NCBI GenBank assembly: GCA_963793265.1
Contig: CAWBZI010000007.1
Coordinates: forward strand, 406,652 to 470,651
Source: an uncultured cyanobacterium
GTDB lineage: Bacteria > Cyanobacteriota > Cyanobacteriia > Phormidesmidales > Phormidesmidaceae
Direction: 5' to 3'
Length of the DNA stretch: 64,000 bases
Shown here: positions 12,313 through 30,762 of the stretch, piece by piece
Layout: the number at the start of each line of letters is the position of its first letter
How positions within the stretch are numbered: the stretch's first letter is position 1
Notes under the pieces: generated by a model
Database searches by the model: none
Told to the model about the DNA's origin: nothing
What the model saw: the letters and a program-made list of their open reading frames with translations, nothing else
Position numbers and translations under genes: made by a program

Positions 12313-12323
12313 AGACTTAAATT

Positions 12324-14102: not shown

Positions 14103-14135
14103 CCTCATAAGTTCTTCAAAGTACGGCGCTATAAC
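14103..14135 (+). promoter_or_regulatory. Direct-repeat promoter motif A upstream of Usp
   Basis: CCTCA-N6-CTTCA-N11-TATAAC. Confidence 0.6.
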
Positions 14136-14179
14136 GATAGGTAAGAAAAGAGAAAATTTAGAAGAAACAGGAGATAGAC

Positions 14180-14713
14180 ATGTTTGACAAAATCATCGTT
14201 GCTATCAATACAACTGAAAATTACGCTCTCCTATTCGACAAAGCGCTTTCACTCGCAAAGGCAACTGGCGCAGCGCTGAGATTAGTCAGTGTGATTACGC
14301 CTCACTACGACTATGGAACGTCTTTTCGCTACTATCCAGGCTCAGCTGGCTACGCGGTAACGATGGAGGATGGTTATTGGGATGCTTACCAAAAGCAGTA
14401 TACAGATCTCAAGGAAGAAGGTTTTAGGATACTGTCTGGCTTGAGCAACCAGGCTAGAGCAGAAGGCGTGCAGACTGAATTCTTTCAAAGGAGCGGCGAA
14501 CCGGGAAAGGTCATCTGTGAGCTAGCCGATACCGAAAAAGCCGATTTGGTTATCGTTGGGAGCCATGGGCGCAGAGGATTAGAAGAGTTTCTAGTTGGCA
14601 GCGTCAGCAGCTACGTTATGCATCGTGCTCCCTGCTCGGTGATGGTTGTACGTGGGCTGGCGCAGGTAGATAGTCTCTTTAAAGAGAAAATAGCAGAGAC
14701 TTCTGTGGCGTAG
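14180..14713 (+). CDS. Universal stress protein (Usp)
   Basis: MFDKIIVA, DLVIVGSHGRRG...GSVSSYV...APCSV. Confidence 0.9.
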   Translation: MFDKIIVAINTTENYALLFDKALSLAKATGAALRLVSVITPHYDYGTSFRYYPGSAGYAVTMEDGYWDAYQKQYTDLKEEGFRILSGLSNQARAEGVQTEFFQRSGEPGKVICELADTEKADLVIVGSHGRRGLEEFLVGSVSSYVMHRAPCSVMVVRGLAQVDSLFKEKIAETSVA

Positions 14714-14723
14714 CAAGCGCTGT

Positions 14724-14756
14724 CTTCACGAAAACTTCACCTTGTAGGGTTACAGT
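14724..14756 (+). promoter_or_regulatory. Direct-repeat promoter motif A upstream of the small Cys-rich ORF
   Basis: CTTCA-N6-CTTCA-N11-TACAGT. Confidence 0.65.
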
Positions 14757-14789
14757 TCAGTTGTCAGTAACAGCAAGGAGCTGAGTCCC

Positions 14790-14948
14790 ATGAACGTTTG
14801 TATTTGCTGCCATCATTCTTTGCTACGCCATATCGGTCGAGGTGATGTCTATTGGTATTGTTCTCAGTGCCATCAGGCTATGCCTGCTATTGAGATAGAT
14901 GTTACTGACTACCTTTCCAAAAAACAAAAGCGCTTCCTCAGAGACTAG
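14790..14948 (+). CDS. Small (52 aa) Cys-rich, zinc-ribbon-like protein
   Basis: AAGGAG RBS; MNVCICCHHSLLRHIGRGDVYWYCSQCHQAMP... with two CxxC motifs; not in the ORF track. Confidence 0.7.
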   Translation: MNVCICCHHSLLRHIGRGDVYWYCSQCHQAMPAIEIDVTDYLSKKQKRFLRD

Positions 14949-15054
14949 AACCTGTTCCTTTTTGTTCAAAAGCTCAGGTTCAAAAGCTCGGCGCAGAGAT
15001 TCTTGAATCAACAGTGTTTTTGGCCGAACCATTAGCCTGGTATGCCTGAAGTGA

Positions 15055-15792
15055 CTAGCTTGCGCTCTGATAGCTGGTTTTAGCCTGCCAGGCTTTGGCG
15101 GCTTGAGGGTAGTGAACTTGCATACAGCGATCGCAGATACCGTGCGTCAGCTCAGCTTCAGAATGCTGCTCGATAAATTGTTCAATGGATGACCAAAAGC
15201 CGTCATCGTTACGCACGCCCTTACAGTGGGAGCAAATAGGCACTAGCCCATCCATCAGCTCTATCTTTTCTAAAGCATCGGCAAGCTTAAAGCAAACTCG
15301 CCGATACTCTAGCTGCGAAACGACCTGCCGAGCCAGCGCCTTGAGCTGTTCTTGCTGCCCTTCTGATAGTTCTCTGGGCTGATGGTCAATCACGCAGAGC
15401 GTTCCTAGTGAGTAGCCATCGGAAGTGGTCAGAGGGACGCCTGCGTAGAACCGAATATCTGGGGCGCAGGTGACGAGCGGGTTGTCTGAAAATCGCTTAT
15501 CTTCACTCGCATCGTTGATCACCATAATGTCTGTATCTAGTATGGCATGGGCACAAAAGGAAACATCGCGAGTGGTTTCGCTGGCGCTTAGCCCTACTTT
15601 AGACTTGAACCACTGACGGTCTGAATCGACGAGGCTGACTAACGCAATTGGCGTATCGCAGATAAAGGCGGCTAGGGCTGTAATATCGTCGTACGTTTGC
15701 TCGGGAGGAGTATCTAGTATGTTGTATGCCCTGAGTGCTCTAAGCCTATCAGACTCTTTGGAAGGCGGTTTAGCTTTCATAATCAGGTTCAT
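15055..15792 (-). CDS. GAF-domain protein with C-terminal Cys/His-rich (CxxC...HGICxxC) module
   Basis: RLRALRAYNILDT, ALVSLVD.DRQWFKS, RFYAGVPL, GTLCVID; tail PICSHCK...THGICDRC. Confidence 0.85.
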   Translation of the reverse strand: MNLIMKAKPPSKESDRLRALRAYNILDTPPEQTYDDITALAAFICDTPIALVSLVDSDRQWFKSKVGLSASETTRDVSFCAHAILDTDIMVINDASEDKRFSDNPLVTCAPDIRFYAGVPLTTSDGYSLGTLCVIDHQPRELSEGQQEQLKALARQVVSQLEYRRVCFKLADALEKIELMDGLVPICSHCKGVRNDDGFWSSIEQFIEQHSEAELTHGICDRCMQVHYPQAAKAWQAKTSYQSAS

Positions 15793-15838
15793 GACGATTC
15801 AGTACCTAGTCCTTCTATTTTATCTGCACCGACTAATC

Positions 15839-15876
15839 GCGAATGTTAATACAATATGCGAATGTTAATACAATAT
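15839..15876. repeat. Perfect 19-bp tandem duplication
   Basis: gcgaatgttaatacaatat x2. Confidence 0.9.
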
Positions 15877-16079
15877 TTAGCATGGCGTTTAGTGCGATGC
15901 ATTCTAGCTCGGATCTACACTAAAGCTCATGCCATTTCAATAGGTAGGACGGCAACAACTGCTACATGATATAAAAAACACTATGAATAGCGGCAAAGAG
16001 CATTTAAGCTGCTAGTTGTTTTGAAGCTTATGGAAAGACTATGTGATATCTGTGCGGATGCTAGAGCGCGGCAAGATTA

Positions 16080-16242
16080 GGGACATGCGTCTAAATAAAG
16101 TACCGCTGATAGCGCTGTTCATTGCCTCGGGCATAGCAGTGCTAAGCCCCTACAGAAATTGACGGTGACGTAGGGGCATAGCACGCTATGCCCCAGGGCA
16201 ATATTTGTCGGTTTGCCGGTACTTTATTTGAGCGCAGCTCCC
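16080..16242. mobile_element. MITE-like palindromic element, copy 1 (163 bp)
   Basis: Imperfect ~26-bp TIRs GGGACATGCGTCTAAATAAAGTACCG / GGGAGCTGCGCTCAAATAAAGTACCG, flanked by TTA on both sides; near-identical inverted copy at 27427-27588. Confidence 0.85.
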
Positions 16243-16617
16243 TTAGTCTGCCCAGCCTAACAACGTGCAGATTTGGCTTGCGATCGCCTCTGGTTCAAAC
16301 GGTTTTAGAATGACGCCAGCACCAAGTTCTTCTAGCTCTTGTCGCTCAATCTCTCTAGCTTGGGCAGTGAGAAAAATAACAGGTATTTTCTGAGTTGAGG
16401 TTTGGGCCTGAAGCTGGCGAAATAGCGAAATGCCGTCGATACCAGGCATCATCACATCTAGCAAAATCGCCTCTGGCTGATTTGCTTGAGCCGCCGCCAT
16501 GCCTTCTGTGCCAGAGGAGGCCAGCAGCACCTTCCAACCTGCTGTAAACTCTAACGCAGCTTTCAGAATTATTCTAATACCCTGTTCATCATCAACTACT
16601 AAAACTGTTCGGCTCAT
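16243..16617 (-). CDS. Single-domain response regulator (receiver only)
   Basis: VLVVDDE, ILLDVMMP, FLTA, KPF. Confidence 0.9.
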   Translation of the reverse strand: MSRTVLVVDDEQGIRIILKAALEFTAGWKVLLASSGTEGMAAAQANQPEAILLDVMMPGIDGISLFRQLQAQTSTQKIPVIFLTAQAREIERQELEELGAGVILKPFEPEAIASQICTLLGWAD

Positions 16618-16653
16618 ACTATTAACTCCTAATTGCCTCAAGTCATCCTCTCG

Positions 16654-18759
16654 CTAGCCGCTGACTGGCAGCGCAAAGCGGAAACAGCTACCTTCGCCAA
16701 CCGTACTCTCAACCCAAATTTTACCGCCATGCTGCTCAATGATATTACGGCAAATCGCCAGCCCTAACCCAGTCCCTCCTTTTGCCTGGGCGTTGTTATG
16801 GCCGACCTGTGTAAATCTTTCAAACACCTTACTTTGCTGATCTGTAGGAATACCAACACCCTCATCGCACACGCTGAAGCAAACAAGTGATTTACCTTCG
16901 CCTAGATCTATATCTTTGTAATCAGGCGTAGTGGTGACGCGAATAGTAGAACCCGGCGGAGAGAATTTGATGGCGTTGTCTAGCAGATTTGTAAGCACCT
17001 GATTGAGGCGGTCGCTATCGGCCACGATCTGTAGCCCTGGGTCGTCAATCTCAATCGCGACGTTGGCATTAGTCGCTAGTAGCTCAAAAGCTCCTGCTAT
17101 CTGGCGCGTGAGCGCTCGGGTATGCACAAGCTGCCTTCTCAGAGGACTTCTCCCAGATTCTAGGCGCTCCAAAGCTAAGATATCACCAACTAGCCTAACT
17201 AGCCGCTCGGAGCTTTCAGCCGCAACTTGCAATATATGCTGGCCCTGCTCAGATTGACTCGTAACAATGCCATGAGAAAGCAGTTTGATACCACCGTGAA
17301 TTGTTGTTAGCGGCGTCCTCAACTCGTGACTCACCATCGCAACAAAGTCGCCCTTGAGCTTATCTACTGCGAAGCGCTCGGTTACATCTTCTCCGATGCT
17401 CATAGAACCTATGGCGTTACCTTGAGTATCGCGCAGCAGCGTGTTGTTCCATACTAGAATTCGGGCTTCTCCTGATTTTGTTAAGATCGAATGCTGATGC
17501 TGTAGAGGCACTTCAGACTGATGATATAGCTGCTCGAAGTAATCTTCTACTTGCGATCGCTCAGGGCCAGGAATAAAGCTTTTAATCCAATCTGCACCCA
17601 TCGTTTCTTCGGCACTATAGCCGACCAAATCTAGTAGGAAGGGGTTGGCATAGGTTACATGGCCATCATGACCCACGCCCACAACAGCTAGCTGGACATC
17701 TTCTAAAAGCGTCCGCCAGCGCCGCTCTGACTGACTTAGTTCGGCGCTGCGCTGCATGACTCTTTCTTCTAGATCGGCGTTGATTTTATTGAGTTGGACG
17801 TAGGCTTGTTGAAGTTCGCGCTGCTCGCTTTTTAACCGTTCGTTCAGACTAACCTGTTCGTTTTCTAGCGCTTGATTACGAACCTCTAGCAGCGTTTGGT
17901 TATCAGTGCGTAGCTGTTCTACTTCTTGTTGTAATAGATCTATCATCTGTTTTACTTCAGTAGGATTTAACGCCTGTAGCAAGCTACTTTGCGTAACCAG
18001 TCCGGCTAGTTTCCCGCTACGGGTACACACCACAAAGCGTCGAACCCGGTGCTGGTTCATCTGCTGGTGCGTCTGCCATAAAGAATCTTTGGGATGAACG
18101 GGCAGTAGTGGTGTGCTCATGACTGTCTGGGCTGATGTGGTTGCCATATCCAGACCTAGCGTTTGAAACTGCACGATATCGCGTTCGGTCACAATGCCGA
18201 TAGGACGAGCATCTGGCGCTAAAATTACCACGCAGCTGACGCCTTCTTCAGACATTTTTTGAGCGATCTGTCTTACTTTTGTAGAGGTCGGCGCGCACAC
18301 GACGTTGGTTTGCATTACGCTCTCAACCAGTTTTAGCTTGAGCAACGTGGAAGGTGTGAGTGCTTTACGCAGACTGTTCTTTGTAATGATGCCGAAGAGG
18401 GTGCCGTCTGCTTCTACGACGGGGAGATGGCGCAGGCGATGCTGTTGCATCTGTTCAAATACGCTGAAGGCGTCTGTGATATCAGCTTTGTGAATGGTGA
18501 TAACTGGCTGGGTCATTACCTGCGCGATAGATTTGTTCGAGATAGGGTGTCCTGATGCGATTAAACGGACTAAATCTCGCTCTGTAAAAATGCCAGCAGG
18601 CTGTCGATTTTGGGTAATGAGCACATAGCTATCTTCGCAAGCATTCATCTGAGCGATCGCCTCTTCTATCGGCGTTTCAGGCGAAACCATTGACGGTGTA
18701 GAAATAACGGCTCGACTCACTAGCAAAGCGGCGTTTAGAGGTAGAGGCTCTGGCTCCAT
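16654..18759 (-). CDS. Sensor histidine kinase with two CBS pairs, coiled coil and PAS
   Basis: GIFTERD, RHLPVV, GIVTERD (CBS); YANP (PAS); SHELRTP, NLLDNAIKF, GGTGLGL. Confidence 0.9.
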   Translation of the reverse strand: MEPEPLPLNAALLVSRAVISTPSMVSPETPIEEAIAQMNACEDSYVLITQNRQPAGIFTERDLVRLIASGHPISNKSIAQVMTQPVITIHKADITDAFSVFEQMQQHRLRHLPVVEADGTLFGIITKNSLRKALTPSTLLKLKLVESVMQTNVVCAPTSTKVRQIAQKMSEEGVSCVVILAPDARPIGIVTERDIVQFQTLGLDMATTSAQTVMSTPLLPVHPKDSLWQTHQQMNQHRVRRFVVCTRSGKLAGLVTQSSLLQALNPTEVKQMIDLLQQEVEQLRTDNQTLLEVRNQALENEQVSLNERLKSEQRELQQAYVQLNKINADLEERVMQRSAELSQSERRWRTLLEDVQLAVVGVGHDGHVTYANPFLLDLVGYSAEETMGADWIKSFIPGPERSQVEDYFEQLYHQSEVPLQHQHSILTKSGEARILVWNNTLLRDTQGNAIGSMSIGEDVTERFAVDKLKGDFVAMVSHELRTPLTTIHGGIKLLSHGIVTSQSEQGQHILQVAAESSERLVRLVGDILALERLESGRSPLRRQLVHTRALTRQIAGAFELLATNANVAIEIDDPGLQIVADSDRLNQVLTNLLDNAIKFSPPGSTIRVTTTPDYKDIDLGEGKSLVCFSVCDEGVGIPTDQQSKVFERFTQVGHNNAQAKGGTGLGLAICRNIIEQHGGKIWVESTVGEGSCFRFALPVSG

Positions 18760-18795
18760 ATTCAGATATTTAGCTCCTCAACACCGAATCTTTCT

Positions 18796-18828
18796 AGCGT
18801 ATCTTGAAATAATGACATTCTTGTGAAG
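18796..18828 (-). promoter_or_regulatory. Direct-repeat promoter motif A upstream of the CBS kinase
   Basis: Minus strand CTTCA-N6-TGTCA-N11-TACGCT. Confidence 0.55.
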
Positions 18829-18842
18829 GTATCTGCTGACCC

Positions 18843-21285
18843 TCATACTATCGGCATGACGCGATCGCGACCCGCTGCTTTAGCTTTATATAACGCTTGG
18901 TCAGCACTTTGATACAGGCTCTGCAAATCCATGGCATCGTGAGGGTAAACGGCTACGCCCGCACTGAAGCTAACTTTGAATGTCAACGGCTCTACAGTGG
19001 CGGTATTGATAGCGCCTGTCTCAAATTGCTCTGTTCGCCATGCCTGCAAGAACTGACGCAGCCGGTGAACTCCCTCCTGGCGACCAACGCCATAGAGACC
19101 GACGTATAAATTCTTCTCCGCCCCAGCGGGCTACCACATCTTCATTGCGAAACGTCGATTTCAGGCGGTCACCAAAGCGCTTAAGCACCTGATCGCCCTT
19201 TGGATGGCCGTACTTATCGTTGATCTCTTTAAAGTTGTCCAGATCGATCGCTGCAAAGCAGAGCGTTTGACCTTGCCGCTGAGCCAACCCCAGTAATCGA
19301 TTCAACGACTGGGTGGACTTACGCCGGTTGGCAACGCCCGTAAGACTATCGACATCGGCCATGAGCTTGCGATCGCGCGATCGCGCCAACCAGCCCAGCA
19401 CCCGTGCCACCAGCTCAGGCGCTACAATCGGTTTACGAATATAGTCATCAGCGCCCACCGAAAACACCTGCTGAATCGTATCGGCATCGGTATAGCCCGA
19501 CATAAACAAAACGGGCAGCTCGCACCAACGGGGCGCATTGCGCACGACCTGGCACAAGTCAAATCCACTGATTCCAGGCATTCTGACATCCAGCAAAACT
19601 AAATCAGGCTCAAAGCTTTCTAACGTTTGCCAAAATGAGCGTGGGTCGCTCAATAGCCGTAGCTCAAATCCCCAGGGCTGCAACAAACTCTGGAGCAGCG
19701 TTAGCATCGCTGGCTCGTCATCTACAATCAGCAGCTTGGCGGTAGGCTCAACTCCTCTTCGGAGTACTCGCGCTGCTGTTTCAAGCAAATCGCTCGGCGT
19801 CACTGGCATCTGAAGCAATCCATCAACGCCCATGCGAGCGACCCTAACCCGATTCTCAAAACTAGCCGCTGCTGTCAGCACAATATTTGGAATAGGCGGC
19901 TGAGTAGCCTGCATCTCAGCTAGCAGCTTAAACTCGTCGCTGTCATTATCTGGCAGCTCAAGAGAGCCATCAAAATCAAAGACAACAATATGAGGCGGTT
20001 GAGCAGAAGCAGAAATCGAAAATATAGCGTTTCTGGCCTGCGCAATGGAATCTACGATAGAAATTTGCGTTTGGTAGCGTCCAGCCATTTCCTGTAGAGT
20101 TTCCAGCCACTCCCGATCGGTTTCGCCCGATTTTTCTACCATCAGCAGATGAAAGTGCTGTCCTGGTAGTAGTTCTATTGGCATCGGAAACGATCTGGGG
20201 TCGGACGGAACTACAGATGTAGAGACAGGTGGAGCAGGTGTAGAAGTATCTACAATTCCTTGTTCTAGCGATCGCTGTATTTGTGTGATGGCCGTCTCTA
20301 GCTGGCTGATATGATCTGCACTCAGGTAGGCATTGGCGCGAAGGAGTTGCTCTATGTCTCGACAGCGGGCAGTTGCAGACTTAAAGCCAAAGCTACCTAG
20401 CGACCCAGCTAGAGAATGCGCTTCGGTGAGTATCTCTTGCTTAACAGATCTATCGAGGAGTCCTGGTTGTAACCCACGCAGCGTATTGGTAACGTTATCC
20501 ACCCGCTGAATGTAGCTTTGACTGACGCTTTGCCAGAGCGCTGCTATATCCAATGAGCCTGTGACGTTCTCTACTTCTGGCGTAGAATCAGGCAACTGTG
20601 GAGCTGCTTGGCTTGTGTCGGTATTAAGCCGATAGCCCAATCCATAGACCGTTGTAATAGTATCTGTTAGCCCTGCTTTTTTGAGCTTTTGGCGCAGCCC
20701 TTTAATATGCGTTCGGACAGAACCCACATTAGGCGTATCGTCGTAGGCCCACACCTTATCGAGCAGATTGTCTAGACTGAAAATTCGGCTAGGATTGCGT
20801 AAAAATAATTCTAAAAGCGCGTATTCCTTAGGCGTAACGGAAATGGGTAGATTGCGACAGCTCACCTCACCGCTGCGCGGATCGAGGCACAGATCGCCCC
20901 ACTGTAATACAGGTGAAGCTAGCCCTTCCGCCCGACGCAGCAAAGCGCGAATACGGGCCAGCAGCTCTTCAAACTCAAAAGGCTTTACTAAGTAATCGTC
21001 AGCGCCAGCATCTAAACCAGCAACTTTGTCACTACTGGCATTGCGGGCAGTCATCAAAATGACAGGCGTGTAATTGCCTTCGTTTCTAAGGTGTCTGCAT
21101 AGCTCTATGCCATTGAGCTTGGGTAGCATCCAGTCCAGCAGGATAAAATCGTAGGGAAAGGCTTCGGCCATGTCTCTGCCCGTGACACCATCTGTTGCCA
21201 AATCCATGACGTAGTGGTGCTCGCTCAGTAGCTGTTCTATCGCGCCTGCTAAAGCCTGATCGTCTTCTACTAGCAGAAATTTCAT
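18843..21285 (-). CDS. Multidomain response regulator REC-OmpR wHTH-Hpt-REC-REC-GGDEF, frameshifted in the GGDEF domain
   Basis: REC (LLDWMLP), wHTH (VRTHIKGLRQKL, TVYGLGYRL), Hpt (AHSLAGSLGSFG), REC (LLDVRMP), GGEEF; one extra base near 19105, after which the domain continues in another frame (VGLYG...FSAGVA...ADQALYKAK..GRDRV). Confidence 0.85.
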
Positions 21286-21428
21286 GCAAGCCTGATGAAT
21301 TCGTTCTGTGAATATTATCTCAGGCTAAGTATTACGAGCGTGCTGACAGCGATGATTGTTTACCTCTCATTTTGGTGGCTTATTCGCATTTTAATACCTG
21401 TCTTATCAAGGTTTATTTCTCTAGATAT

Positions 21429-22046
21429 TTACAGAGACTCATTGAAGAAAGTTAGCTCCACGCCGATACCAGCAGGATCAGTGACGAATAGCTGCGTTTG
21501 GCAAATATCTGGTAGCTGAATGAGGCGATAGGGCGTCTGGGTGGCGATCATTTTTGCGATCGCCCGTTTAAGCCCTACGCACCCTAGCGAAATATGATTG
21601 AAGTGCCCTTTTTGCGAGCTGGGTAAAGCTGCTATGCCTGGTCGCACGCTTAGATGCACAATGGGTGTGCGTCCGGCATATAGCCAGTAGCCATCGTTTG
21701 CTAAATGTGCCCTGGGGCCAAGTTTTAGCCCGATAACGGCTGTATAGAAGTGCTTCACTTGCTCGATTAGCTCACTATGGGCAGTGATATTAAAGTGGTT
21801 AAGACCACAAACGCTCATGTGGTCTGTCGCTGACGACTGGCAGCTAGGCCCGCTTAAGTTAAACTCACTCAAGCTGAACTTGCTTGAGTTAAACTCGCTT
21901 GAATCGGGCCGTGCTGCTAGTTGCTCAGTTGCTTTTAATAGCGGTATTTTATCAGTTGATTCTCGATACGGCAGTTCCTGATTGGTTTTTCCAAATGCCA
22001 GCGCTAGATCTGTTCCAATGGTCTTTGCAAGGACAACTTTAGTCAT
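21429..22046 (-). CDS. VOC/glyoxalase-family protein with N-terminal extension
   Basis: LNHFNI, FYTAVIGL, GYWLY, NHISL, QLFVTDPAGIGVEL; GGAGG RBS. Confidence 0.75.
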   Translation of the reverse strand: MTKVVLAKTIGTDLALAFGKTNQELPYRESTDKIPLLKATEQLAARPDSSEFNSSKFSLSEFNLSGPSCQSSATDHMSVCGLNHFNITAHSELIEQVKHFYTAVIGLKLGPRAHLANDGYWLYAGRTPIVHLSVRPGIAALPSSQKGHFNHISLGCVGLKRAIAKMIATQTPYRLIQLPDICQTQLFVTDPAGIGVELTFFNESL

Positions 22047-22160: not shown

Positions 22161-22193
22161 ACCTTAAAGAATAAATGTGAGGAAGTTATGCGC
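22161..22193 (-). promoter_or_regulatory. Direct-repeat promoter motif A upstream of the VOC gene
   Basis: Minus strand GCGCA-N6-CCTCA-N11-TAAGGT (first repeat degenerate). Confidence 0.5.
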
Positions 22194-22284: not shown

Positions 22285-24798
22285 CTAGTGAAGTGCAGCA
22301 TAGATAGCCTGTAATAAGGATTCGGAAGAGAAGGGCTTCTGCAAAAAACCTTTTACACTGTCGCTGGCAGAGGCTGCAACGTCTGCGTTTCCTGGCAATC
22401 CACTAATTAATACCGCTTTGAGCTGAGGATCTATCTTTTGCATAACGCGAGCTGCCGACACGCCATCTAGCTCAGGCATTGCCATATCCATGACGACCAA
22501 ATCAATAATTTCTTTGTGCTCTGTGTATTGAGCGATCGCATCAATCCCATCACTCGCATCTAGCACCTTGTAGCAGTGAGTTTCGAGTATGCTGCGAACA
22601 ATCACCCGAATCGCAGGTTCATCGTCTACAACCAGTACACACTCTCCTTTACCCACCGGCAAGAACTCTGTTTCTGTCGTCGTTCCTGCTGTAGATTCTA
22701 AAGCAGGCAGGTAGATCTTAAACTGGGTGCCCTTGCCAACTTCGCTAGCTACGCTAATAAAACCGCCGTGACTTTTGACGATGCTATGAACAGTGGAAAG
22801 CCCTAAGCCAGTACCGCCCTGCTCCTGCTTGGTGGTGAAAAAGGGTTCAAAAATGCGATCGCACAGACCGCTCGCAATGCCCTCACCCGTATCGGCAACT
22901 GTCACTAAAATGTAGGGGCCTGTATGTGCTTCTATATGGCTATCTACAAACGCCTGATCGAGTGATAGGTTTACTGCCGATACGCTCAAAGTTCCGCCAT
23001 CAGGCATGGCGTCTCGGGCATTGACAAACAAATTCATAAACACCTGATGTAGCTGGGTTGGATCGCCGCTTACAGACCACAGCGAATGAGGAATATCAAC
23101 AGAGATATCAATCGACTTTGGAAAGGTTTTATGAACAAAACTCCTAATTTCTCTAATCAAATGCTTGACCTGTAGCGGATTGCGACTGCCTTCTGCCCCT
23201 CTGGCAAACGAGAGCATTTGCCCAATAATTTCAGAGCCGCGCTTAGCACTATCTTGTAGAATCTCAAATTGCTGTTTTAGCTGCTTGTTTGCAGTCGGTA
23301 GCTGCATAGGCAGTAGCTCCGCAACTCCGTATATCGGCGTCAAAATGTTATTGAGATCGTGGGCAATGCCGCTAGCTAGGGTGCCAATACTTTCTAACCG
23401 TTGCGCTCTTAGGAACTGCGCCTGAAGCTGTTTTGCCTGGGTGATATCAGTGTTCACCGTCAAAATAGAAGCTGGGCGATCGCGCTTATCTCTAAGCAGC
23501 GTCCACCGGCTCATCACAGTGATACTCTGGCCCGTTCGAGTGAACTGCTGGCATTCACCTTGCCAGCGCCCTTTGTCGAGCAAACTTTGCATCGCTTCGG
23601 TCGGCTCATGGAGTTCATCTAAAGACAGCAGTTCTTCTGCATCTCGCCCTAGTGCCTCCTGCTCGCTCCAGCCATACAGCACCGCTGCGCCCTTGTTCCA
23701 AAACAGTATCCGATTATCCGTGCCGCGCACGAAAATAGCTTCTGTGGCGACATCTAGCAGTGCTGCCTGCTCATGTACTTTTTGCTGTGCGAGCTTGCGA
23801 TCGGTAATGTCTATAATCAATCCGTCAATGTAAGCGGACTGATCGCCTGTGGCTAAAACCGGCTGTCCTTTCTCCCAAAAGTATCGAATGCTGCCCGCTT
23901 TGTTTCTAATTCGATACTCAGCTTGAAAGGGTTGATGCTTTGCAATCGACTCCTTTATCACGGTCTGCACATGATTCCGGTCTTCTAGCAAAATAAGCGA
24001 CTCGATAGAACAGACGCCATCTATCAATAGCTCGGTGGGCTCAAACCCGGTCAGTGATTTGCACTGACTGTTGAGAAAAACCGTGTGATTGTGATTGTCA
24101 TAAAACAGCCGATAGACGATTCCCGGCATATTTTCAGTCAGCGTGCGATATTCTAGCTCGCTTTGCTTAAGGACTTGAATAGAGTGCATCCGTTCAACCG
24201 TTTGCGCGATCAAAGTGGCAATAGACTGAATAAAATCAACGTCATGGCTGTTGAATAAGCGTTCTTGAATAGAATGAATCTCCAAAACGCCATAGGGATT
24301 AGAATAGCTGCCAATGGTAACACTCAGGCCGCTGGTAACGTCGCCCTCTCCCAATAGAGAAAGTTCGTTAAAGCGAGTCTCGGTGCTAAAGTTCTTGATC
24401 GCGATTGGATACTCATGGCTCAGCGTGTAGCCCGCTTGAGTATTTTCGTTTGTACTAATTACAGCCTGACCTACTAGCGCTAGGGGCCATCCAAATCCGG
24501 CTTTCAGTAATAGCGTTTCGCTACCAGGCAGCAATTCTAAGATTTTGCAATAGTCTATGTCTAGCGTCTGAGCAATCGCGCACGCCACCTTATTCATAAA
24601 CCGGCTAAGGTCATCAGCGGCCAGTGCGAGCTGTCCTAGCTCAGCAATCGTTCCCTGCTGCTCTACTCTCGCTTGCAAGGACTTTTCTATTTGTTTGCAC
24701 TCGGACGTACTTTGATCGAGCTTGCAGGTTACTGGCTGAGAGGAGGTTTGATCTGAGCCTATGTGATCGGCAGAGTCTATGGATTGTAGGATGCTCAT
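22285..24798 (-). CDS. Hybrid sensor kinase GAF-PAS-PAS-HisKA-HATPase-REC
   Basis: GIAHDLNNIL, NARDAMP.GG, GTGLGL, C-terminal receiver (VVDDE, MDMAMP). Confidence 0.9.
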   Translation of the reverse strand: MSILQSIDSADHIGSDQTSSQPVTCKLDQSTSECKQIEKSLQARVEQQGTIAELGQLALAADDLSRFMNKVACAIAQTLDIDYCKILELLPGSETLLLKAGFGWPLALVGQAVISTNENTQAGYTLSHEYPIAIKNFSTETRFNELSLLGEGDVTSGLSVTIGSYSNPYGVLEIHSIQERLFNSHDVDFIQSIATLIAQTVERMHSIQVLKQSELEYRTLTENMPGIVYRLFYDNHNHTVFLNSQCKSLTGFEPTELLIDGVCSIESLILLEDRNHVQTVIKESIAKHQPFQAEYRIRNKAGSIRYFWEKGQPVLATGDQSAYIDGLIIDITDRKLAQQKVHEQAALLDVATEAIFVRGTDNRILFWNKGAAVLYGWSEQEALGRDAEELLSLDELHEPTEAMQSLLDKGRWQGECQQFTRTGQSITVMSRWTLLRDKRDRPASILTVNTDITQAKQLQAQFLRAQRLESIGTLASGIAHDLNNILTPIYGVAELLPMQLPTANKQLKQQFEILQDSAKRGSEIIGQMLSFARGAEGSRNPLQVKHLIREIRSFVHKTFPKSIDISVDIPHSLWSVSGDPTQLHQVFMNLFVNARDAMPDGGTLSVSAVNLSLDQAFVDSHIEAHTGPYILVTVADTGEGIASGLCDRIFEPFFTTKQEQGGTGLGLSTVHSIVKSHGGFISVASEVGKGTQFKIYLPALESTAGTTTETEFLPVGKGECVLVVDDEPAIRVIVRSILETHCYKVLDASDGIDAIAQYTEHKEIIDLVVMDMAMPELDGVSAARVMQKIDPQLKAVLISGLPGNADVAASASDSVKGFLQKPFSSESLLQAIYAALH

Positions 24799-24890
24799 AA
24801 GTTTGAGTCAGTACGCAAAAAATGCGGTTCTAGATCGAAGATCTGTCGAAATAGCATAGCAATCACCTTTATAAAAGTATCTATGCCATT

Positions 24891-24923
24891 AGAGTACAAA
24901 GACAGTTTGAGGAAATTGTGAGT
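24891..24923 (-). promoter_or_regulatory. Direct-repeat promoter motif A upstream of the hybrid kinase
   Basis: Minus strand ACTCA-N6-CCTCA-N11-TACTCT. Confidence 0.6.
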
Positions 24924-24974
24924 ACGCGCTTTAACGGTAAAGGCAATCTCTCAAGGGGTTTTCAATTGCGATCG

Positions 24975-25007
24975 CTTCATAGTTTCCTCACAACTGACTC
25001 CCATAAT
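24975..25007 (+). promoter_or_regulatory. Direct-repeat promoter motif A upstream of glgX
   Basis: CTTCA-N6-CCTCA-N11-CATAAT. Confidence 0.6.
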
Positions 25008-25284
25008 AGCGAGGTAGGCAAAAATAGAATGCTATTGAGAAAGGTCGCTCCCTTGCATGATATGCGCTGGATTTTCCTGCAAAGCCCTAATGTGTGTTAG
25101 TGAGAGGAGTTATTATGCTTGTGTTAGCATCTCCGACTAAAAAACATTTTATCTGATGTTATCCCGTGCTCCCATCTGGCAAAAAGCTGCGATATCCGAA
25201 AGCGTCTCTCTAAAATTGTTCAGCAGGTTGCCTAGCTGATAAAAGCGTCGCGTTCAAGGTCTGTGGGCCTTGTTCATATAAACC

Positions 25285-27417
25285 ATGATTTCTAACAAAG
25301 AGCCTTTTATCCAACCTGGTAATAGCTTTCCTTTAGGGGCTACTGTACAAAATCATGGCATTAACTTTTGTCTTTATGCCCCAGATGCGATCGCTGTAGA
25401 ACTTCTCCTTTTTAGCTCTCCTAATGCTCCTCAGCCGCAGACTATTCTTCAGCTCAATCCGCAAAAAAACAAAACTGCTCACTACTGGCATATATTCGTT
25501 GACAATCTCTCTTCAGGACAAGTCTACGCTTACAGAGTAGATGGGTCTTACGATCCATGCGCTGGGCTGCGGTTCAATCGGAATAAAGTCCTGCTCGATC
25601 CCTATGCCCGCAGCGTGACGGGCTGGGATATCTATTCTCGTAAAGCAGCAAGCGATCGCCATGATAACTGCGCTCAAGCCCTGAGAAGTGTCGCAATTGA
25701 TTTGACTCCTTACGATTGGGAAGGCGATATTCACCCCAAAGTTCCTTATGCAGCAACCGTTATCTACGAGCTGCACGTAGGCGGGTTTACTCAGCGAGAA
25801 AATTCTGGCCTGCCCGTTGAAAAGAGAGGAACTTATGCGGGACTTATAGAAAAGATTCCGTACCTGAAGGCGCTGGGCGTTACAGCCGTAGAGCTAATGC
25901 CTATACAACAGTTTGACCCTGGCGATGCTCCCGCAGGGTTAACTAATTACTGGGGCTATAGTCCAATCGCTTTTTTCGCACCGCATCAGGCTTACAGCTC
26001 TTGCAAGGATAGTTTGGGGCCAGTCGATGAGTTTCGCAATATGGTCAAAGCTTTGCACCGCGAAGGGATTGAAGTAATTTTGGATGTCGTGTTCAATCAC
26101 ACTGCTGAGGGCGATTGTGAAGGGCCAACGCTGTCGTTTCGAGGACTGGCAAATGGAGACTATTACATTCTTGATAAGGACAAAACCTATTACAAAAACT
26201 ACAGCGGCTGTGGCAATACGGTGAAGACCTCTGCAATCAGCGGCTACCTGATCTTTGACTGTCTGCGCTACTGGGTTTCTGAAATGCATGTTGATGGATT
26301 CCGGTTTGATTTAGCTTCGGTGCTCTCACGCGATGTAACGGGCGAACCCACGGAAAATCCGCCTATCTTATGGATGATTAATACCGATCCGGTGCTGGCA
26401 GGCACTAAAATTATTGCTGAGGCGTGGGATGCCGCAGGACTGTACCAGTTTGGCAGCTTTGCGGGCGATCGCTTCTCCGAATGGAACGGGCCTTATCGAG
26501 ATGAGGTAAGGCGGTTTGTTAAAGGCGATCGCAACATGGTAAAAGCGGTTGCCCATCGAATTGCCGGTAGCCCCGATCTGTATCCTCACCTCAAGCGAGG
26601 GCCGAACTACAGCATTCATTTTGTTACCTGTCACGATGGGTTCACGCTAAATGACTTGGTGAGCTACAACGAGAAACATAATCAGGCTAATGCAGAAGAC
26701 AATCGGGATGGAGCTAGCGAGAACTGGAGCTGGAACTGCGGGGTCGAAGGGCTGACTGATAATGCGGAAATTCAGGCGCTGCGAGTGCAGCAGGCAAAAA
26801 ACGCGCTGGTGATATGGGCGATCTCACAGGGAACGCCTATGTTGCTGATGGGGGATGAGGTATTGCGATCGCAGCAGGGAAACAATAACGCCTATTGTCA
26901 AAACAACGAGCTAAGCTGGTTCGACTGGAGCTGGCGCGATGACCAAAAAGATTTCCGCCGCTTCACCCAGCAGCTCATAAAATTTGTTCAATCACTCTAC
27001 ATACTCAAGCACGACCATCCGCTCATCGTGACCCCTCAACCCATTCTAGAACCGGCAATTACCTGGCACGGCACTCAGCTCGGCCAGCCCGACTGGAAAG
27101 ACAATTCTCACAGTTTGGCTTTTACCCTACGCTACGGGCAGCACGAAGAACGCCTTCACGGGCTACTTAATATGTTTTGGGAGCCACTTACATTTGAGCT
27201 GCCACCGCTCGAACGCGGACAATACTGGCGTCGCATTATTAACACGGCTTTACCGTCCCCACAAGATATCTCTTCTGTAGAAAGCGCACCCTGCACGAAT
27301 CAGCCCTTTTATAGGGTTGAAGCTCGTTCCACAGTAGTCCTTATGGCAATTAGAGAAAGTGTTCCAATTTCTGCCTCTAGTACAGAATTAACGACAATCA
27401 GTGAGTATGCACTATAG
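25285..27417 (+). CDS. glgX: Glycogen debranching enzyme (GH13 isoamylase)
   Basis: NYWGY, DVVFNHT, DGFRFDLAS, IAEAWD, VTCHDGFTL, GNNNAYCQ. Confidence 0.95.
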   Translation: MISNKEPFIQPGNSFPLGATVQNHGINFCLYAPDAIAVELLLFSSPNAPQPQTILQLNPQKNKTAHYWHIFVDNLSSGQVYAYRVDGSYDPCAGLRFNRNKVLLDPYARSVTGWDIYSRKAASDRHDNCAQALRSVAIDLTPYDWEGDIHPKVPYAATVIYELHVGGFTQRENSGLPVEKRGTYAGLIEKIPYLKALGVTAVELMPIQQFDPGDAPAGLTNYWGYSPIAFFAPHQAYSSCKDSLGPVDEFRNMVKALHREGIEVILDVVFNHTAEGDCEGPTLSFRGLANGDYYILDKDKTYYKNYSGCGNTVKTSAISGYLIFDCLRYWVSEMHVDGFRFDLASVLSRDVTGEPTENPPILWMINTDPVLAGTKIIAEAWDAAGLYQFGSFAGDRFSEWNGPYRDEVRRFVKGDRNMVKAVAHRIAGSPDLYPHLKRGPNYSIHFVTCHDGFTLNDLVSYNEKHNQANAEDNRDGASENWSWNCGVEGLTDNAEIQALRVQQAKNALVIWAISQGTPMLLMGDEVLRSQQGNNNAYCQNNELSWFDWSWRDDQKDFRRFTQQLIKFVQSLYILKHDHPLIVTPQPILEPAITWHGTQLGQPDWKDNSHSLAFTLRYGQHEERLHGLLNMFWEPLTFELPPLERGQYWRRIINTALPSPQDISSVESAPCTNQPFYRVEARSTVVLMAIRESVPISASSTELTTISEYAL

Positions 27418-27426
27418 CCGCCTTAA

Positions 27427-27588
27427 GGGAGCTGCGCTCAAATAAAGTACCGGCAAACCGACAAATATTGCCCTGGGCATAGCGTGCTAAGCCCCTACGT
27501 CACCGTCAATTTCTGTAGGGGCTTAGCACTGCTATGCCCGAGGCAATGAACAGCGCTATCAGCGGTACTTTATTTAGACGCATGTCCC
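27427..27588. mobile_element. MITE-like palindromic element, copy 2 (162 bp, inverted relative to copy 1)
   Basis: Reverse complement of 16080-16242 with one substitution and one 1-bp indel seen; flanked by TAA on both sides. Confidence 0.85.
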
Positions 27589-27932
27589 TAAGCTCAATTA
27601 CAATCTTCGTAGAAAATAATAGTTTTCTCAATCGACTAGGTGCAGATGCAGTTTCTTAGAACACTCTTGTTGCCCGTAGGCTATTGCCAGTCAGTCACAA
27701 ACCTGATCGAGCTGAGTGAGCGTCAGCAGTTTCATCAGCATATAGCTGAATTATGTAGACTTTATGTGTTGGCCCATGCTGAAACAAACAAGCTTCAACC
27801 TATGCTTCTTAATCTCCTAAATGCTGAACAAAAGTCATGCGTGCCAAGCATAGTTGTGTCAGAATATAGATAAGACAAATTTCAAATGCCAGCGTTCCCT
27901 TCATTAAAACGCTGGCTGAAGGGAGGTCACGA

Positions 27933-28595
27933 ATGAGATACATCACGAAGCCTGTAGTGCTGCACCATACAACACAATCGACGCACCAGCGCAAACTCAA
28001 AAAAAGAAGGTACTTTCCAACTATGGTAGTTACTGCGGTGGCAATGATAGCGACATCAGCCATGGCAGAAGCTCCTATTGAGGAGTCTACCTTCACGCCT
28101 CAAAGCAGCCTCTCACAAGTTATTCTTAGCCAAGAAGCTACCCGTCAAAACAACATACGTCAGCTAATTCTACTCAATGAATGTATGGGCTGCGATCTAG
28201 CAGGTGTCACCCTAACGGAAGCTCACCTCATTGGTGCTGACCTACGCCAAGCCAACCTTCGAGGTGCGAATCTCACAAACAGCAACCTAGAAGGTGCAGA
28301 TTTAGCCGGAGCTGACCTCACTGGAGCCAACCTTACCCGCGCCTTTTTAACTGATACCAGCCTGGCAAATACACAGCTAGACGGGGTTAACTTCAGCGGC
28401 GCTCATCTCTACTCTGTCGATGTGAGCGGAGCCTCAATGAACAACCTTAATCTAACAGGCGCACAGCTATTCAACACGCCTATCTACATCGGTGGCGAAG
28501 AAGACTCGCTGCCCAGTCAGCTAGAGCCAGTGAGTCCTACGGAAGAAGTCAATCCTATGGAGCACTACAATCCGCTGCTAGACTTTGCTCTGTAG
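27933..28595 (+). CDS. Pentapeptide-repeat protein, probably exported
   Basis: A(D/N)LxG repeats, ECMGCDL, hydrophobic signal-like segment; start uncertain. Confidence 0.85.
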   Translation: MRYITKPVVLHHTTQSTHQRKLKKRRYFPTMVVTAVAMIATSAMAEAPIEESTFTPQSSLSQVILSQEATRQNNIRQLILLNECMGCDLAGVTLTEAHLIGADLRQANLRGANLTNSNLEGADLAGADLTGANLTRAFLTDTSLANTQLDGVNFSGAHLYSVDVSGASMNNLNLTGAQLFNTPIYIGGEEDSLPSQLEPVSPTEEVNPMEHYNPLLDFAL

Positions 28596-28648
28596 CGTTG
28601 AATAGCATTTCGTATCACATCCGTACAATCTCCTCAGCCGACGAGCGA

Positions 28649-28681
28649 CCTCATAGAATCCTCATGTCTTCTTTCTAAGCT
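28649..28681 (+). promoter_or_regulatory. Direct-repeat promoter motif A upstream of the HoxW-like gene
   Basis: CCTCA-N6-CCTCA-N11-TAAGCT. Confidence 0.65.
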
Positions 28682-28722
28682 GAGAAAAGAAAGGCGCATC
28701 ACTTAAGGAGACTAAGGTAACA

Positions 28723-29289
28723 ATGATTTACTCATCCGTCGTTCAAGAACCTCAGCAAAAGATATCTCGGAATGTGGCTAAACAGATAGCGCGGCCTCAC
28801 TTCCTGGTTATTGGCTACGGTAATGGTGCAAAAGGCGACAACGCAGTCGGTATCCAAATTGCCAATCATATCTCCGCTTGGGAAGCCCCATTGGTTAAAT
28901 CTATGGCTGCTTATCAGCTCACGCCAGATCTCGTAAACAATCTTGCCTCTGTAGACTATGTGTTCTTTGTAAGGCCCTGTCGGAGATCGAGTCATGCTGG
29001 AACGCTACAGGTAGATCCTATTTTCGCGAGTGGTAAGCCACCGCAAACTGAACAATCAGCGGAGCGATCGCCCTCGGAATGCACTCATCCGTGCACGCCA
29101 ACCGCGCTACTGAACTTAGCTCAGCAGCTATACGGTCATTCGCCCCAAGCATGGCTTCTACAAATACCTACTGACAGCACCAACTGCAACCAAGCATTGT
29201 CTTCTACTGCTCAGAGAGGTTACGATCGCGCGCTTAGAACGATTGAGAAGTTTTTCATGACTTACCAGCAACCGGCTGAGATGATGTAG
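28723..29289 (+). CDS. Hydrogenase maturation protease-like protein (degenerate)
   Basis: LVIGYGN...GDNAVG, YQLTPDL, THPCTP.ALL.LAQQLYG..P.AWLL. Confidence 0.7.
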   Translation: MIYSSVVQEPQQKISRNVAKQIARPHFLVIGYGNGAKGDNAVGIQIANHISAWEAPLVKSMAAYQLTPDLVNNLASVDYVFFVRPCRRSSHAGTLQVDPIFASGKPPQTEQSAERSPSECTHPCTPTALLNLAQQLYGHSPQAWLLQIPTDSTNCNQALSSTAQRGYDRALRTIEKFFMTYQQPAEMM

Positions 29290-29318
29290 GCAACATTCGG
29301 TCAAGCGCGACCGAAGCG

Positions 29319-29840
29319 ATGGCAACGGCTTGGATTGCTTTAGCCCGATTGCAAATGACTTTTCCCGGTTCGCCTCCGGCCTGCTGCAAAAACTCTGCAT
29401 GGACGCCTGCTACTTTTGGCATTCAAGATGTTCCCTTTGTGGGTGGCAAGAATGCTTCGCTTGGGGAAATGATCCAGCAGCTCTCTCCACAGGGCGTTCG
29501 CGTCCCTACCGGATTTGCGACTACGGCTAATGCCTATGCCTACTTCATTCGAGCAGGTGGGCTAGAAGAAAAAATGCGATCGCATCTAGATTCGCTAGAT
29601 ACAGAGGACATTGAAGCCCTAAGAAAGAGCGGTCAGTCCGTGAGAGATCTTATTCTAGAAACGCCTTTTCCGCCGGAATTAGAGAGGGCTATTGAAAGCG
29701 CCTACCTGGACTTGTGCGATCGCAACAATCCAAATCTAGATGTCGCTGTGCGCTCTAGCGCCACCGCCGAAGACCTCTTTCTGAACTGGCATCGGCAAAC
29801 CGTTAAGCAAGGTGACAACCGTAGAGTTGCAACAGCGTAA
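29319..29840 (+). pseudogene. ppsA: PEP synthase N-terminal fragment
   Basis: VGGKNASLGEM, VPTGFATTA, VAVRSSATAEDL, then abrupt loss of similarity; full enzyme is several times longer. Confidence 0.85.
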
Positions 29841-29864
29841 AGATTCACGGCAAGGAAAAATATT

Positions 29865-30011
29865 ATGTTTAATACAATTCTAGTGGCCTTAGATACCGAG
29901 GAAGACTGCACCTCTGTTTTTGAACAGGTAATGGATATAGCCAAGCAGATGGGTGCAGGGCTGGAGGTAATGGGCGTACCGCTTTTTACTTCAACTCATC
30001 GGAGAAAGTAG
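29865..30011 (+). pseudogene. Usp N-terminal fragment (48 aa)
   Basis: MFNTILVALDTEEDCTSVFEQVMDIAKQMGAGL resembles the start of the Usp at 14180; ends in a hairpin at 30001-30044. Confidence 0.65.
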
Positions 30012-30101
30012 TCGCCCACCTGTTTTTCGGCGACCACTTTCTCCAATGCAATGAGCCACAGATCGAAGACGCTAGAGCGCGAAATAAGAGGGACATAAGA
30101 A

Positions 30102-30725
30102 ATGAAAGTAGCCGATATTATGACGACTAAAGTAGTGGCCATTCGCGGCTCGTCTACAGTCGCACAAGCTGCAGCCTTAATGAAGCAAGAAGGCGTTCAC
30201 GCGCTGGTTGTAAAGCGCATAGATGATTCGGACGCTTATGGCATCGTTTCGGTGAGCGATATTGTTGGCCAGGTGATTGCGTTTGGCCGCAACCCAAAGC
30301 AAATTCGGGTATACGAAATTATGTCTAAGCCCTGCCTTGTGCTCAATCCCAATCTCGGGGTTGAGTATGCGGCGCGTCTGCTAACTCAGTTCAATCTGCA
30401 CAGCGCTCCTGTTATCCAGTCCGAGCTGATAGGAATTCTATCTGTCTCCGACATTTTGGATCGTAGCAGCGCTATAGAGGAACCGCGCGAGCTAGCGCTA
30501 GCCGATGAGATTGAAGCTCTTTCTGAGGCTGCGCAGGCTATCTGTGAGGACAACGGGCCAAACTCGACCGCCTGCGCGGAGGCTTGGGCTAGAGTTGATG
30601 TTCTACAGGCAGAGCTAGCTCATCAACAGACTAAAACGCTCGACCAATTCGCCTCGGAGCAGTTTTATGAGGAGTATCCAGAAGCTTTCAAAAATAGAGA
30701 ATACGATGCTTGGTGTAGTGGATAA
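30102..30725 (+). CDS. CBS-CP12 fusion protein
   Basis: CBS pair (VADIMT, YGIVS.SDI, YEIMSKP) followed by CP12-like AICEDNGPNSTACAEAWARVDVLQAE. Confidence 0.85.
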   Translation: MKVADIMTTKVVAIRGSSTVAQAAALMKQEGVHALVVKRIDDSDAYGIVSVSDIVGQVIAFGRNPKQIRVYEIMSKPCLVLNPNLGVEYAARLLTQFNLHSAPVIQSELIGILSVSDILDRSSAIEEPRELALADEIEALSEAAQAICEDNGPNSTACAEAWARVDVLQAELAHQQTKTLDQFASEQFYEEYPEAFKNREYDAWCSG

Positions 30726-30729
30726 ATAC

Positions 30730-30762
30730 CTTCATAAGACCCTCAACATTCTTGGCTAGTTT
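30730..30762 (+). promoter_or_regulatory. Direct-repeat promoter motif A with no convincing downstream gene
   Basis: CTTCA-N6-CCTCA-N11-TAGTTT. Confidence 0.55.

Follow-up and report, generated by a model that had tools for sequence, protein, structure and literature searches.

The window analysed here is a 64,000-nucleotide stretch of an uncultured cyanobacterium of the family Phormidesmidaceae (assembly GCA_963793265.1, contig CAWBZI010000007.1, positions 406,652–470,651 of the forward strand). Its part between 14 and 31 kb contains an island of stress, kinase and carbon-metabolism genes whose promoters carry a direct repeat of the pattern C(C/T)TCA-N6-C(C/T)TCA-N11-(-10), the offset being counted from the second half-site to the -10-like hexamer. 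This element, hereafter called the box, and the RcaC/RfpB-like regulator encoded in the same island as a candidate for binding it were the subject of the analysis. The original prediction had placed eight boxes in the island, and when the sequence was re-read all eight coordinates and hexamers were as written. It had also described the same repeat at all eight sites, which is exact for five of them (14103, 14724, 24975, 28649 and 30730); the site at 24923 on the minus strand has one mismatch and those at 18828 and 22193 on the minus strand have two. The hexamer reads TAnnnT at six sites, and the other two, TATAAC at 14103 and CATAAT at 24975, match TATAAT at five of six positions. Seven of the eight sites point at a gene lying 66–310 nt away, as had been claimed, the exception being 30730.

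The sites were scored with a matrix trained on 96 sites from other genomes. On the plus strand, the box CCTCA/CTTCA + TATAAC (14103..14135; predicted start 14142; 21.7 bits) precedes a universal stress protein (Usp) gene (14180..14713, plus), which belongs to the commonest target family, and the box CTTCA/CTTCA + TACAGT (14724..14756; predicted start 14763; 18.9 bits) precedes a reading frame for a 52-aa Cys-rich, zinc-ribbon-like protein (14790..14948, plus). The latter is a genuine protein family, conserved in other cyanobacteria and often found directly after a box. On the minus strand, a degenerate box CTTCA/TGTCA + TACGCT (18796..18828; predicted start 18789; 17.9 bits) lies before a CBS kinase and a receiver gene, and the kinase is preceded by a similar site in four other loci. 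The box GCGCA/CCTCA + TAAGGT (22161..22193, minus; predicted start 22154; 28.2 bits) lies before a gene labelled VOC/glyoxalase-like in the original prediction (21429..22046, minus), which has no Pfam or NCBIfam hit, is conserved upstream of the regulator and is preceded by a site in four other loci too; this site possibly drives the regulator behind it as well. The box ACTCA/CCTCA + TACTCT (24891..24923, minus; predicted start 24884; 30.2 bits) precedes a hybrid kinase and stands back to back with CTTCA/CCTCA + CATAAT (24975..25007, plus; predicted start 25014; 13.4 bits), which lies ahead of the glycogen debranching enzyme gene glgX (25285..27417, plus); the latter scores above the TIGR02100 cut-off. 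The box CCTCA/CCTCA + TAAGCT (28649..28681, plus; predicted start 28688; 32.7 bits) is the best of the genome and ranks first of 1,300,780 intergenic positions. It is followed by a hydrogenase-maturation-protease-like (HoxW-like) gene (28723..29289, plus; below cut-off), a 5' fragment of ppsA (29319..29840, plus), a Usp-like remnant of 48 codons judged by eye from its N-terminus (29865..30011, plus) and a CBS-CP12 gene (30102..30725, plus). The last site, CTTCA/CCTCA + TAGTTT (30730..30762, plus; predicted start 30769; 28.0 bits), is an orphan followed by a 39-codon reading frame and sequence resembling the flanks of insertion sequences (IS). Three further sites were absent from the original prediction: a weak box with TAAGCT (16025..16057, minus; predicted start 16018; 16.1 bits) before a GAF-domain protein gene (15055..15792, minus); a perfect repeat with no -10 at offset 11 (14028..14043, minus; 7.7 bits), back to back with 14103 and likely a decayed divergent promoter; and a weaker site at 27769 on the minus strand found by the matrix scan.

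The box stood out from random DNA. Between 13.9 and 31.1 kb there are six perfect repeats, whereas 300 Markov simulations gave 0.19 on average and never more than 2. The bare repeat was not enriched in the 5.68-Mb assembly as a whole, with 88 copies at spacer 6 against 61–89 at other spacers out of codon phase, and TAnnnT occurred five times at offset 10 and six times at offset 11. In intergenic DNA, as defined by crude gene calls from a custom script, 29 repeats were counted at spacer 6 against 4–10 at spacers 3, 5, 7 and 9, and TAnnnT occurred at offset 11 in six of them against 0–1 at any other offset within 7–15. Because the excess at spacer 6 and offset 11 was seen in intergenic DNA and not genome-wide, the box signal is an intergenic one. 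Under the matrix all eight sites fall within the top 18 intergenic positions. The geometry was also recovered in 116 held-out loci outside the matrix training, where a TATAAT-like hexamer lay exactly at offset 11 for 87 of 98 distinct perfect repeats, strict TAnnnT was seen 41 times at offset 11 and no more than 8 times at any other offset, and spacer 6 accounted for 106 repeats against 9–64 at other spacers. A direct repeat of 11-bp period and a fixed distance from repeat to -10 are both features of OmpR/PhoB-type promoters, and a consensus -35 is absent from the eight sites, as expected for a promoter activated in this manner. None of the 15 calls of a sigma-70-like promoter scan coincided with the eight sites, and one overlapped the 14043 minus-strand repeat. 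If the hexamer occupies -12 to -7, the two half-sites begin at -39 and -28, where the -35 would be. These results together showed that the motif is a real promoter box with fixed spacing, and they supported the activator-type geometry proposed for it.

The regulator gene (18843..21285, minus) encodes, by Pfam, a REC-wHTH-Hpt-REC-REC-GGDEF protein with the helix GSVRTHIKGLRQKL. Its phospho-acceptor residues D51, H290, D437 and D566 are present, as in the RcaC/RfpB-like architecture. One extra base near 19103–19105, just after GGEEF, frameshifts the GGDEF domain in this assembly and is absent from the contigs of two close read sets, X1 and X2; it is either an assembly error or a strain-specific break, and in both cases the DNA-binding and relay domains are spared. 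Behind the regulator follow a histidine kinase of 4xCBS-PAS-HisKA-HATPase architecture with His478 (16654..18759, minus; Pfam) and a single receiver protein (16243..16641, minus), in the same order as rfpB-rfpA-rfpC as given in the part of PMC4658448 used for comparison. The top blastp paralogues of the kinase core and of the receiver are those of the other four RcaC-like triplets of the genome, the far-red one with RfpC included, and on this sequence evidence the window triplet is a paralogue of rfpB-rfpA-rfpC. The hybrid kinase (GAF-PAS-PAS-HisKA-HATPase-REC; 22285..24798, minus) falls outside the RfpA-like kinase group.

Boxes and regulators of this type lie together in the genome. All 15 matrix hits above 18 bits are within 20 kb of an RcaC-like gene, in 3.7% of the genome, and one of its five RcaC-like regulators (C1:420828) has no such hit nearby. 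The regulators that adjoin boxes share the helix (A/S)VRTH(I/V)KGLR, referred to below as the VRTH helix. The repeat had been noticed only between 14 and 31 kb, which is true within the window, and three further clusters were found elsewhere in the genome. A second small island (C1:284300-289900, L256) contains three boxes and genes for a HoxW-like protein, a regulator with DAVRTHVKGLR, a receiver and a short CBS protein, together with a kinase whose coding sequence is divided between two reading frames. In a third triplet (C6:435781-440442, L257) one box precedes a protein of about 129 aa without a Pfam family, which sits between regulator and kinase there and in several other genomes. The island's own winged-helix regulator is a leading candidate for the single activator originally proposed, but three paralogues in this genome share the helix core, each beside boxes, and as many as three of them probably read the box.

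The original prediction of an eight-promoter regulon in the island had to be corrected, the regulon being class-wide. Its full pattern was present in 34 of 41 related genomes, including all 24 of the same genus, and a class-wide search of 301 cyanobacterial genomes with CYTCAYARNTTCCTCA-N11-TAnnnT, one mismatch allowed, found the refined box CYTCA-YAARTT-CCTCA-N11-(-10) in 133, with up to 24 copies per genome against 0–2 for the reversed pattern. The same genomes were classed by regulator, with the helix detected by codon pattern and at most 17 RcaC-like candidates scored per genome, into those with the helix (84), those with other RcaC-like matches only (125) and those with no RcaC-like match (92). 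At least one box was present in 82, 45 and 6 genomes of these classes and at least three boxes in 70, 16 and 0, respectively, and none of the 92 had even two. The association held within five of the six families tested (f1, f14, f16, f18 and f32). Sixteen genomes with at least three boxes lacked the strict helix, and 10 of the 11 inspected had a near-variant (VRTHIKGVR, VRTHIKC, VRTQIKG or VRAHIKG). Among 80 named Nostocales loci a site was found in 47, facing away from the regulator within 900 nt in 39, with no reversed-matrix hit in 938 kb. In a large set of loci (L071-L077 and L154-L233) regulator and kinase are fused into a protein of 1200–1770 aa divergent from a Usp gene, and the Usp promoter opposite the fusion has a nearly invariant box and TATAA-type -10. 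From this adjacency and co-occurrence, the box is likely bound by the VRTH-helix subfamily of RcaC/RfpB-like regulators. A single-clade origin of the helix was not established, since a quick tree gave three groups with weak deep support.

The same pattern might arise if the box were read by another factor, such as a housekeeping OmpR protein (RpaA, RpaB or NrrA), a sigma factor of the island or a Crp-like protein, and the RcaC-like gene were a co-travelling target. The regulator gene itself is often box-led (6 of 178 sites), and the Acaryochloris plasmid pREB4, which contains a block of box-led genes, encodes a sigma-70 factor and a Crp/Fnr protein; the available part of PMC8949462 treats this block as a fermentation module and proposes a sigma factor and a PAS kinase as its controllers. 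Against this, the half-site varies with the helix of the neighbouring regulator. The absence of two or more boxes from all 92 genomes without an RcaC-like match also counts against it, given that the housekeeping OmpR set is, to our knowledge, present in all cyanobacteria. Moreover, an 11-bp direct repeat before a normal -10 suits a winged-helix dimer and not Crp, whose sites are palindromes. We therefore regard a different reader as improbable.

The genes behind the box were surveyed at 178 sites in 75 stretches of other genomes, 167 of which had a reading frame within 450 nt, and 31 of 86 target groups or controls were scanned with Pfam. The commonest targets were Usp (17 sites), CBS proteins (8), HoxW-like genes (8) and the regulator itself (6), followed by the unknown 129-aa protein (6), PFOR (5), DUF4327 (5) and HoxE (3); ppsA, Hsp20, the CBS kinase, the VOC-like gene and pentapeptide proteins had four each. 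Rarer ones include HoxU, pfk, GroEL, an FtsH-like gene, glgP, glgX, alcohol dehydrogenase and nitroreductase. Genes of the hox/hyp sets are among the box-led genes of other genomes, and one 200-kb stretch of genome G013 is densely dotted with sites. In the 150 of 227 kb of pREB4 that were covered, 24 sites were found at 100–200 kb, none at 50–100 kb and none with the reversed matrix. They precede hox, hyp, N-ATPase, pfk operon, Hsp20 and Usp genes, and the block also encodes a regulator of this subfamily with the helix EEAVRTHIKGLRQKL. According to the part of PMC9324425 available, hox and the second ATP synthase are always retained or lost as a pair. The theme of low-energy carbon metabolism originally assigned to the island was thus supported, and far more clearly in relatives (PFOR, hox, pfk, glgP and ppsA) than at the island, whose own ppsA is fragmentary.

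The response of these genes was followed in the only expression data found, the Acaryochloris rows of PMC5295598 Table S3, from lit cultures kept for 7 days at low oxygen; 45 of 60 rows were used, the 15 beyond 200 kb being excluded. Ten of the 13 listed box-led first genes fell, against 7 of the 32 other listed plasmid genes, and four of those seven lie in box-led operons; 11 of the 24 sites had no listed first gene. The table holds changed genes only, with low counts; for atp it conflicts with the text of the paper, and for psbU with Table 2. Its start coordinates are RNA-seq estimates, which for four genes lie 13–54 nt from the predicted starts, and they played no part in testing the predictions. 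Within these bounds the rows hint at co-regulation of the box-led genes. They argue against plain low-oxygen induction in a CBS-type strain and fit an energy signal, after the fact only.

The window CBS kinase has no GAF domain and lacks the proximal histidine of the FixL/DosP haem PAS, and the GAF stretch of the hybrid kinase has no Cys-His pair, so neither window kinase has the marks of a bilin photoreceptor. The ribose-binding Asp motif G-h-h-T-x-x-D was found in CBS1 and CBS3 only of the four CBS domains, and the pREB4 kinase has two CBS motifs. CBS kinases made up 9 of 28 regulator neighbours scanned, the others being GAF/PAS-only, ETR1-like or fused regulator-kinases. In the fused form, the best solved matches of the PAS before the kinase core were FixL (E 4e-18) and DosP (E 1e-15), with the histidine aligned; such a PAS was present in 77 of the 80 named Nostocales loci, the other three having no kinase in the stretch. 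The Nostocales PAS is therefore a putative haem oxygen sensor. The diversity of neighbouring kinases (CBS, GAF/PAS only, ETR1-like and fused haem PAS) could also mean that the regulator family is right and the physiology wrong, the box being a general output of RcaC-like relays with many sensors (light, ethylene-receptor-like, redox) and the fermentation genes one frequent cargo. Many non-fermentative targets (pentapeptide proteins, psbU and small unknown proteins) and the absence of low-oxygen induction in the Acaryochloris rows point the same way. Conversely, Usp, CBS, HoxW-like, PFOR, ppsA, Hsp20, HoxE/U and pfk targets recur across families, and both dominant sensor types indicate energy or oxygen. 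Such a general output appears to us unlikely on balance, if by no means far-fetched.

We favour, with a probability of roughly 70%, the explanation that the box marks stress and fermentation genes and is bound by the RcaC/RfpB-like subfamily, which would activate them on low energy or low oxygen. Two winged helices would sit on the half-sites as a head-to-tail pair near -39 and -28, taking over the role of the -35, and the bound regulator would recruit RNA polymerase in a PhoB-like manner. The linked kinase would sense low energy or low oxygen, phosphate would pass from it through the single receiver to the Hpt and receiver domains of the regulator, as modelled for RfpA/C/B, and the target genes would be switched on. 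The kinase and, in relatives, the regulator are themselves box-led, which would make the loop self-reinforcing. The least certain part is the signal, which may be adenylate charge via CBS here and in Acaryochloris and oxygen via the haem PAS in Nostocales.

Several observations weigh against this explanation. The linked sensor varies by lineage, so one common signal cannot be assumed, and in the Acaryochloris rows the box-led genes fell at low oxygen in light instead of being induced, with hoxE up. Family f10 shows no association for the strict helix pattern. Genomes G216 and G164 carry the helix and no strict box (three matrix sites in G164), in G174 five boxes coincide with two hits, neither of which has such a helix, and the regulators at L085, L086 and L089 have no site in their 20 kb. 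The genomes are related and the co-occurrence statistics accordingly overstated, and the same co-occurrence and adjacency would be expected if the regulator were itself controlled by a different factor encoded on the same mobile island. Lastly, a tblastn search of the assembly (98.97% complete) found no PFOR, HoxE/U/Y/H, HypF or nitroreductase.

The last result bears on the state of the island. Since no HoxE/U/Y/H or HypF was found in the assembly, the HoxW-like gene is orphaned. The tblastn search, which used 12 proteins from relatives, gave glgP and HoxW-like matches and weaker ldhA-, Hsp20- and alcohol dehydrogenase-like ones. The phosphoenolpyruvate synthase originally counted among the targets is reduced to residues 5–146 of 829, and the assembly contains no complete copy; CBS-CP12, also so counted, has no box of its own and could be reached only by read-through from 28649. 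The sequence behind the 30730 box matches IS-like flanks elsewhere, and two of three matches inspected adjoin an IS-like transposase fragment. A small RNA behind this box was considered and rejected: Rfam gave no match, and the 46 genomes of the genus gave only partial ones. The island is what remains, in decayed form, of a larger fermentation module. The boxes themselves could then be vestiges in this genome, left in a decaying island with a broken regulator, as the truncated ppsA and Usp, the missing hox and PFOR genes, the orphaned 30730 site and the frameshift might indicate; the frameshift, however, falls after the DNA-binding and relay domains and is missing from X1 and X2, boxes of 13–33 bits stand ahead of intact genes and two other paralogues are intact. 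We consider vestigial sites quite improbable.

Other features of the window touch the island without belonging to its box-led genes. Two inverted copies of a repeat of about 170 bp with internal hairpins (16081-16245 and 27421-27595) resemble miniature inverted-repeat transposable elements and have 19 blastn matches in the genome, and the X1 contigs end at the first copy. A pentapeptide-repeat gene inside the island (27933-28595) has no box on its own strand, and the weak 27769 site faces away from it. To the left, at 9455-14000, gdhA is divergent from a gene pair for an aldehyde dehydrogenase and a thiamine pyrophosphate enzyme, which we take to be the succinate-semialdehyde dehydrogenase/2-oxoglutarate decarboxylase shunt; no matrix site above 8 bits was found at these genes. 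To the right, at 31048-34030, an LTXXQ (Spy/CpxP-like) gene is divergent from a kinase and a NarL-type regulator, again with no box. An Rfam scan of 10–34 kb gave no match.

Boxes of the same geometry were also found beside other regulators. Far-red clusters were examined in 12 genomes. In 10 of them a 33-bp sister box precedes a chlF-like gene, and such boxes also lie upstream of apc, psbO and psbA genes. A preprint (10.1101/2024.05.15.594131), in the part available, describes a T-rich motif, whose core spans 33 bp, upstream of chlF, psbA3, apc and psbO and proposes RfpB as its binder; from the shared genes and length, we infer that the sister box is probably this motif. The complete far-red photoacclimation cluster of this genome (C7:93400-121400, L254 and L255) contains six sister boxes, and it also includes an inserted Usp gene and CBS gene that follow a box of the far-red type, where the two regulons may cross over. 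It might be supposed that RfpB, through its near-identical box, drives the island as part of the far-red response, and beyond the Usp and CBS pair, the sites 14103 and 14724 reach 13–14 bits on the far-red matrix. All nine window sites nevertheless score higher on the fermentation matrix, whereas five of the six sites in the far-red cluster fit the far-red one better; the second half-site CCTCA occurs in 0 of 17 far-red sites (3 of 20, not ahead of far-red genes, having been dropped) against 53 of 110 fermentation sites; and a close RfpB match (E 1e-85) is present in 14 of 301 genomes against 133 with the box. Control of the island by RfpB is thus highly improbable. In a survey of 20 stretches from genomes without a strict box, 10 had boxes of the same geometry with other half-sites near regulators with other helices: TTTCA/ATTCA by TVRAH, CTCCA by TIKSH, CTTCA-AAAAWT by TVSTH and YGTCA by T(I/V)R(T/S)HIKR. 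Nine of the remaining stretches had no site above 14 bits, and one (L103) holds a VRTH regulator. Several of these RcaC-like regulators are flanked by such boxes (L092-L094, L098, L099, L100, L106 and L110), and these loci may be further small regulons. An L-box pattern occurs in 54 of 301 genomes, with no match in this one; of 20 loci fetched, 9 have it ahead of cpcB-like genes. Its matches read GCACA-AAATTT-GCACA, in register with CCTCA-CAAGTT-CCTCA, and have a -10-like hexamer at offset 10, with TAnnnT at offset 11 in 1 of 20. The H box of PMC13079394, in the part available, was rejected as a match, being an 11-nt direct repeat of different letters.

At somewhat less than even odds we place the broader proposal that the VRTH subfamily is a master regulator of dark fermentation in many cyanobacteria (hox, PFOR, N-ATPase and glycogen breakdown), assembled from the relay that also underlies the red/green and far-red light switches and fitted with exchangeable CBS and haem-PAS sensors, and that the L, far-red and fermentation boxes form one family in which the helix predicts the half-site, giving the RfpB site. 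How cyanobacteria regulate their hydrogenase and fermentation genes is known chiefly from strains that do not belong to this group. The box lets members of the regulon, small unknown proteins included, be called in more than 100 genomes and gives start sites predicted to the base. It also names a candidate regulator for a 100-kb module that is gained and lost jointly in Acaryochloris, a pattern for which the available parts of PMC8949462 and PMC9324425 give no explanation, and offers a candidate RfpB binding site, described in 2023 as still sought in the accessible text of PMC10127269. A helix-to-half-site code, if true, would make regulons assignable for many RcaC-like paralogues and provide switchable promoters for hydrogen and fermentation engineering. 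No description of the box or regulon was found in a literature search that covered few subscription papers, and an earlier description is possible; the available text and supplements of PMC3610870 do not contain the box.

Among known systems, the hypoxia regulons of DosR and FixL-FixK have a similar cargo (Usp, Hsp20, CBS, nitroreductase and pfk/PEP-synthase-like genes), and the Nostocales PAS is FixL-like. DosR of Mycobacterium and FixK, however, bind palindromes through NarL- or Crp-type domains, in contrast to the direct repeat and winged helix here; the likeness is an analogy only, and the window system is not a member of the DosR regulon kind. The pho box has two half-sites 11 bp apart that end in TCA, 11 nt before the -10, with no consensus -35. 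The box shares the half-site period, the TCA ends, the -10 distance and the missing -35, and differs in reading CCTCA and not TGTCA, in a multi-domain regulator with Hpt and in targets not related to phosphate. RcaE-RcaF-RcaC, as described in the available part of PMC5737509, has the same regulator architecture and relay type, and the L box has the same 11-bp period; the half-site and targets are different, the L-box hexamer is one base closer and the window has no bilin photoreceptor. RfpA-RfpC-RfpB has the same regulator-kinase-receiver order, a winged helix between receivers and a paralogous kinase core and receiver, whereas the window kinase has CBS domains and no phytochrome and the helix is VRTH against VTSH/VTAH. 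The far-red box has CTCCA/TTTCA half-sites with a T-tract, against CCTCA and fermentation and stress targets here, and while the preprint motif is called specific to far-red species in the part available (10.1101/2024.05.15.594131), the fermentation box is not. The window system is thus not a member of the chromatic acclimation systems, Rca and Rfp proper. The hox/Na+-ATPase/glgP/PFOR block of Acaryochloris pREB4, for which the available parts of PMC8949462 and PMC9324425 name neither a box nor a winged-helix regulator, has the same gene set, 24 boxes and a regulator of the same subfamily.

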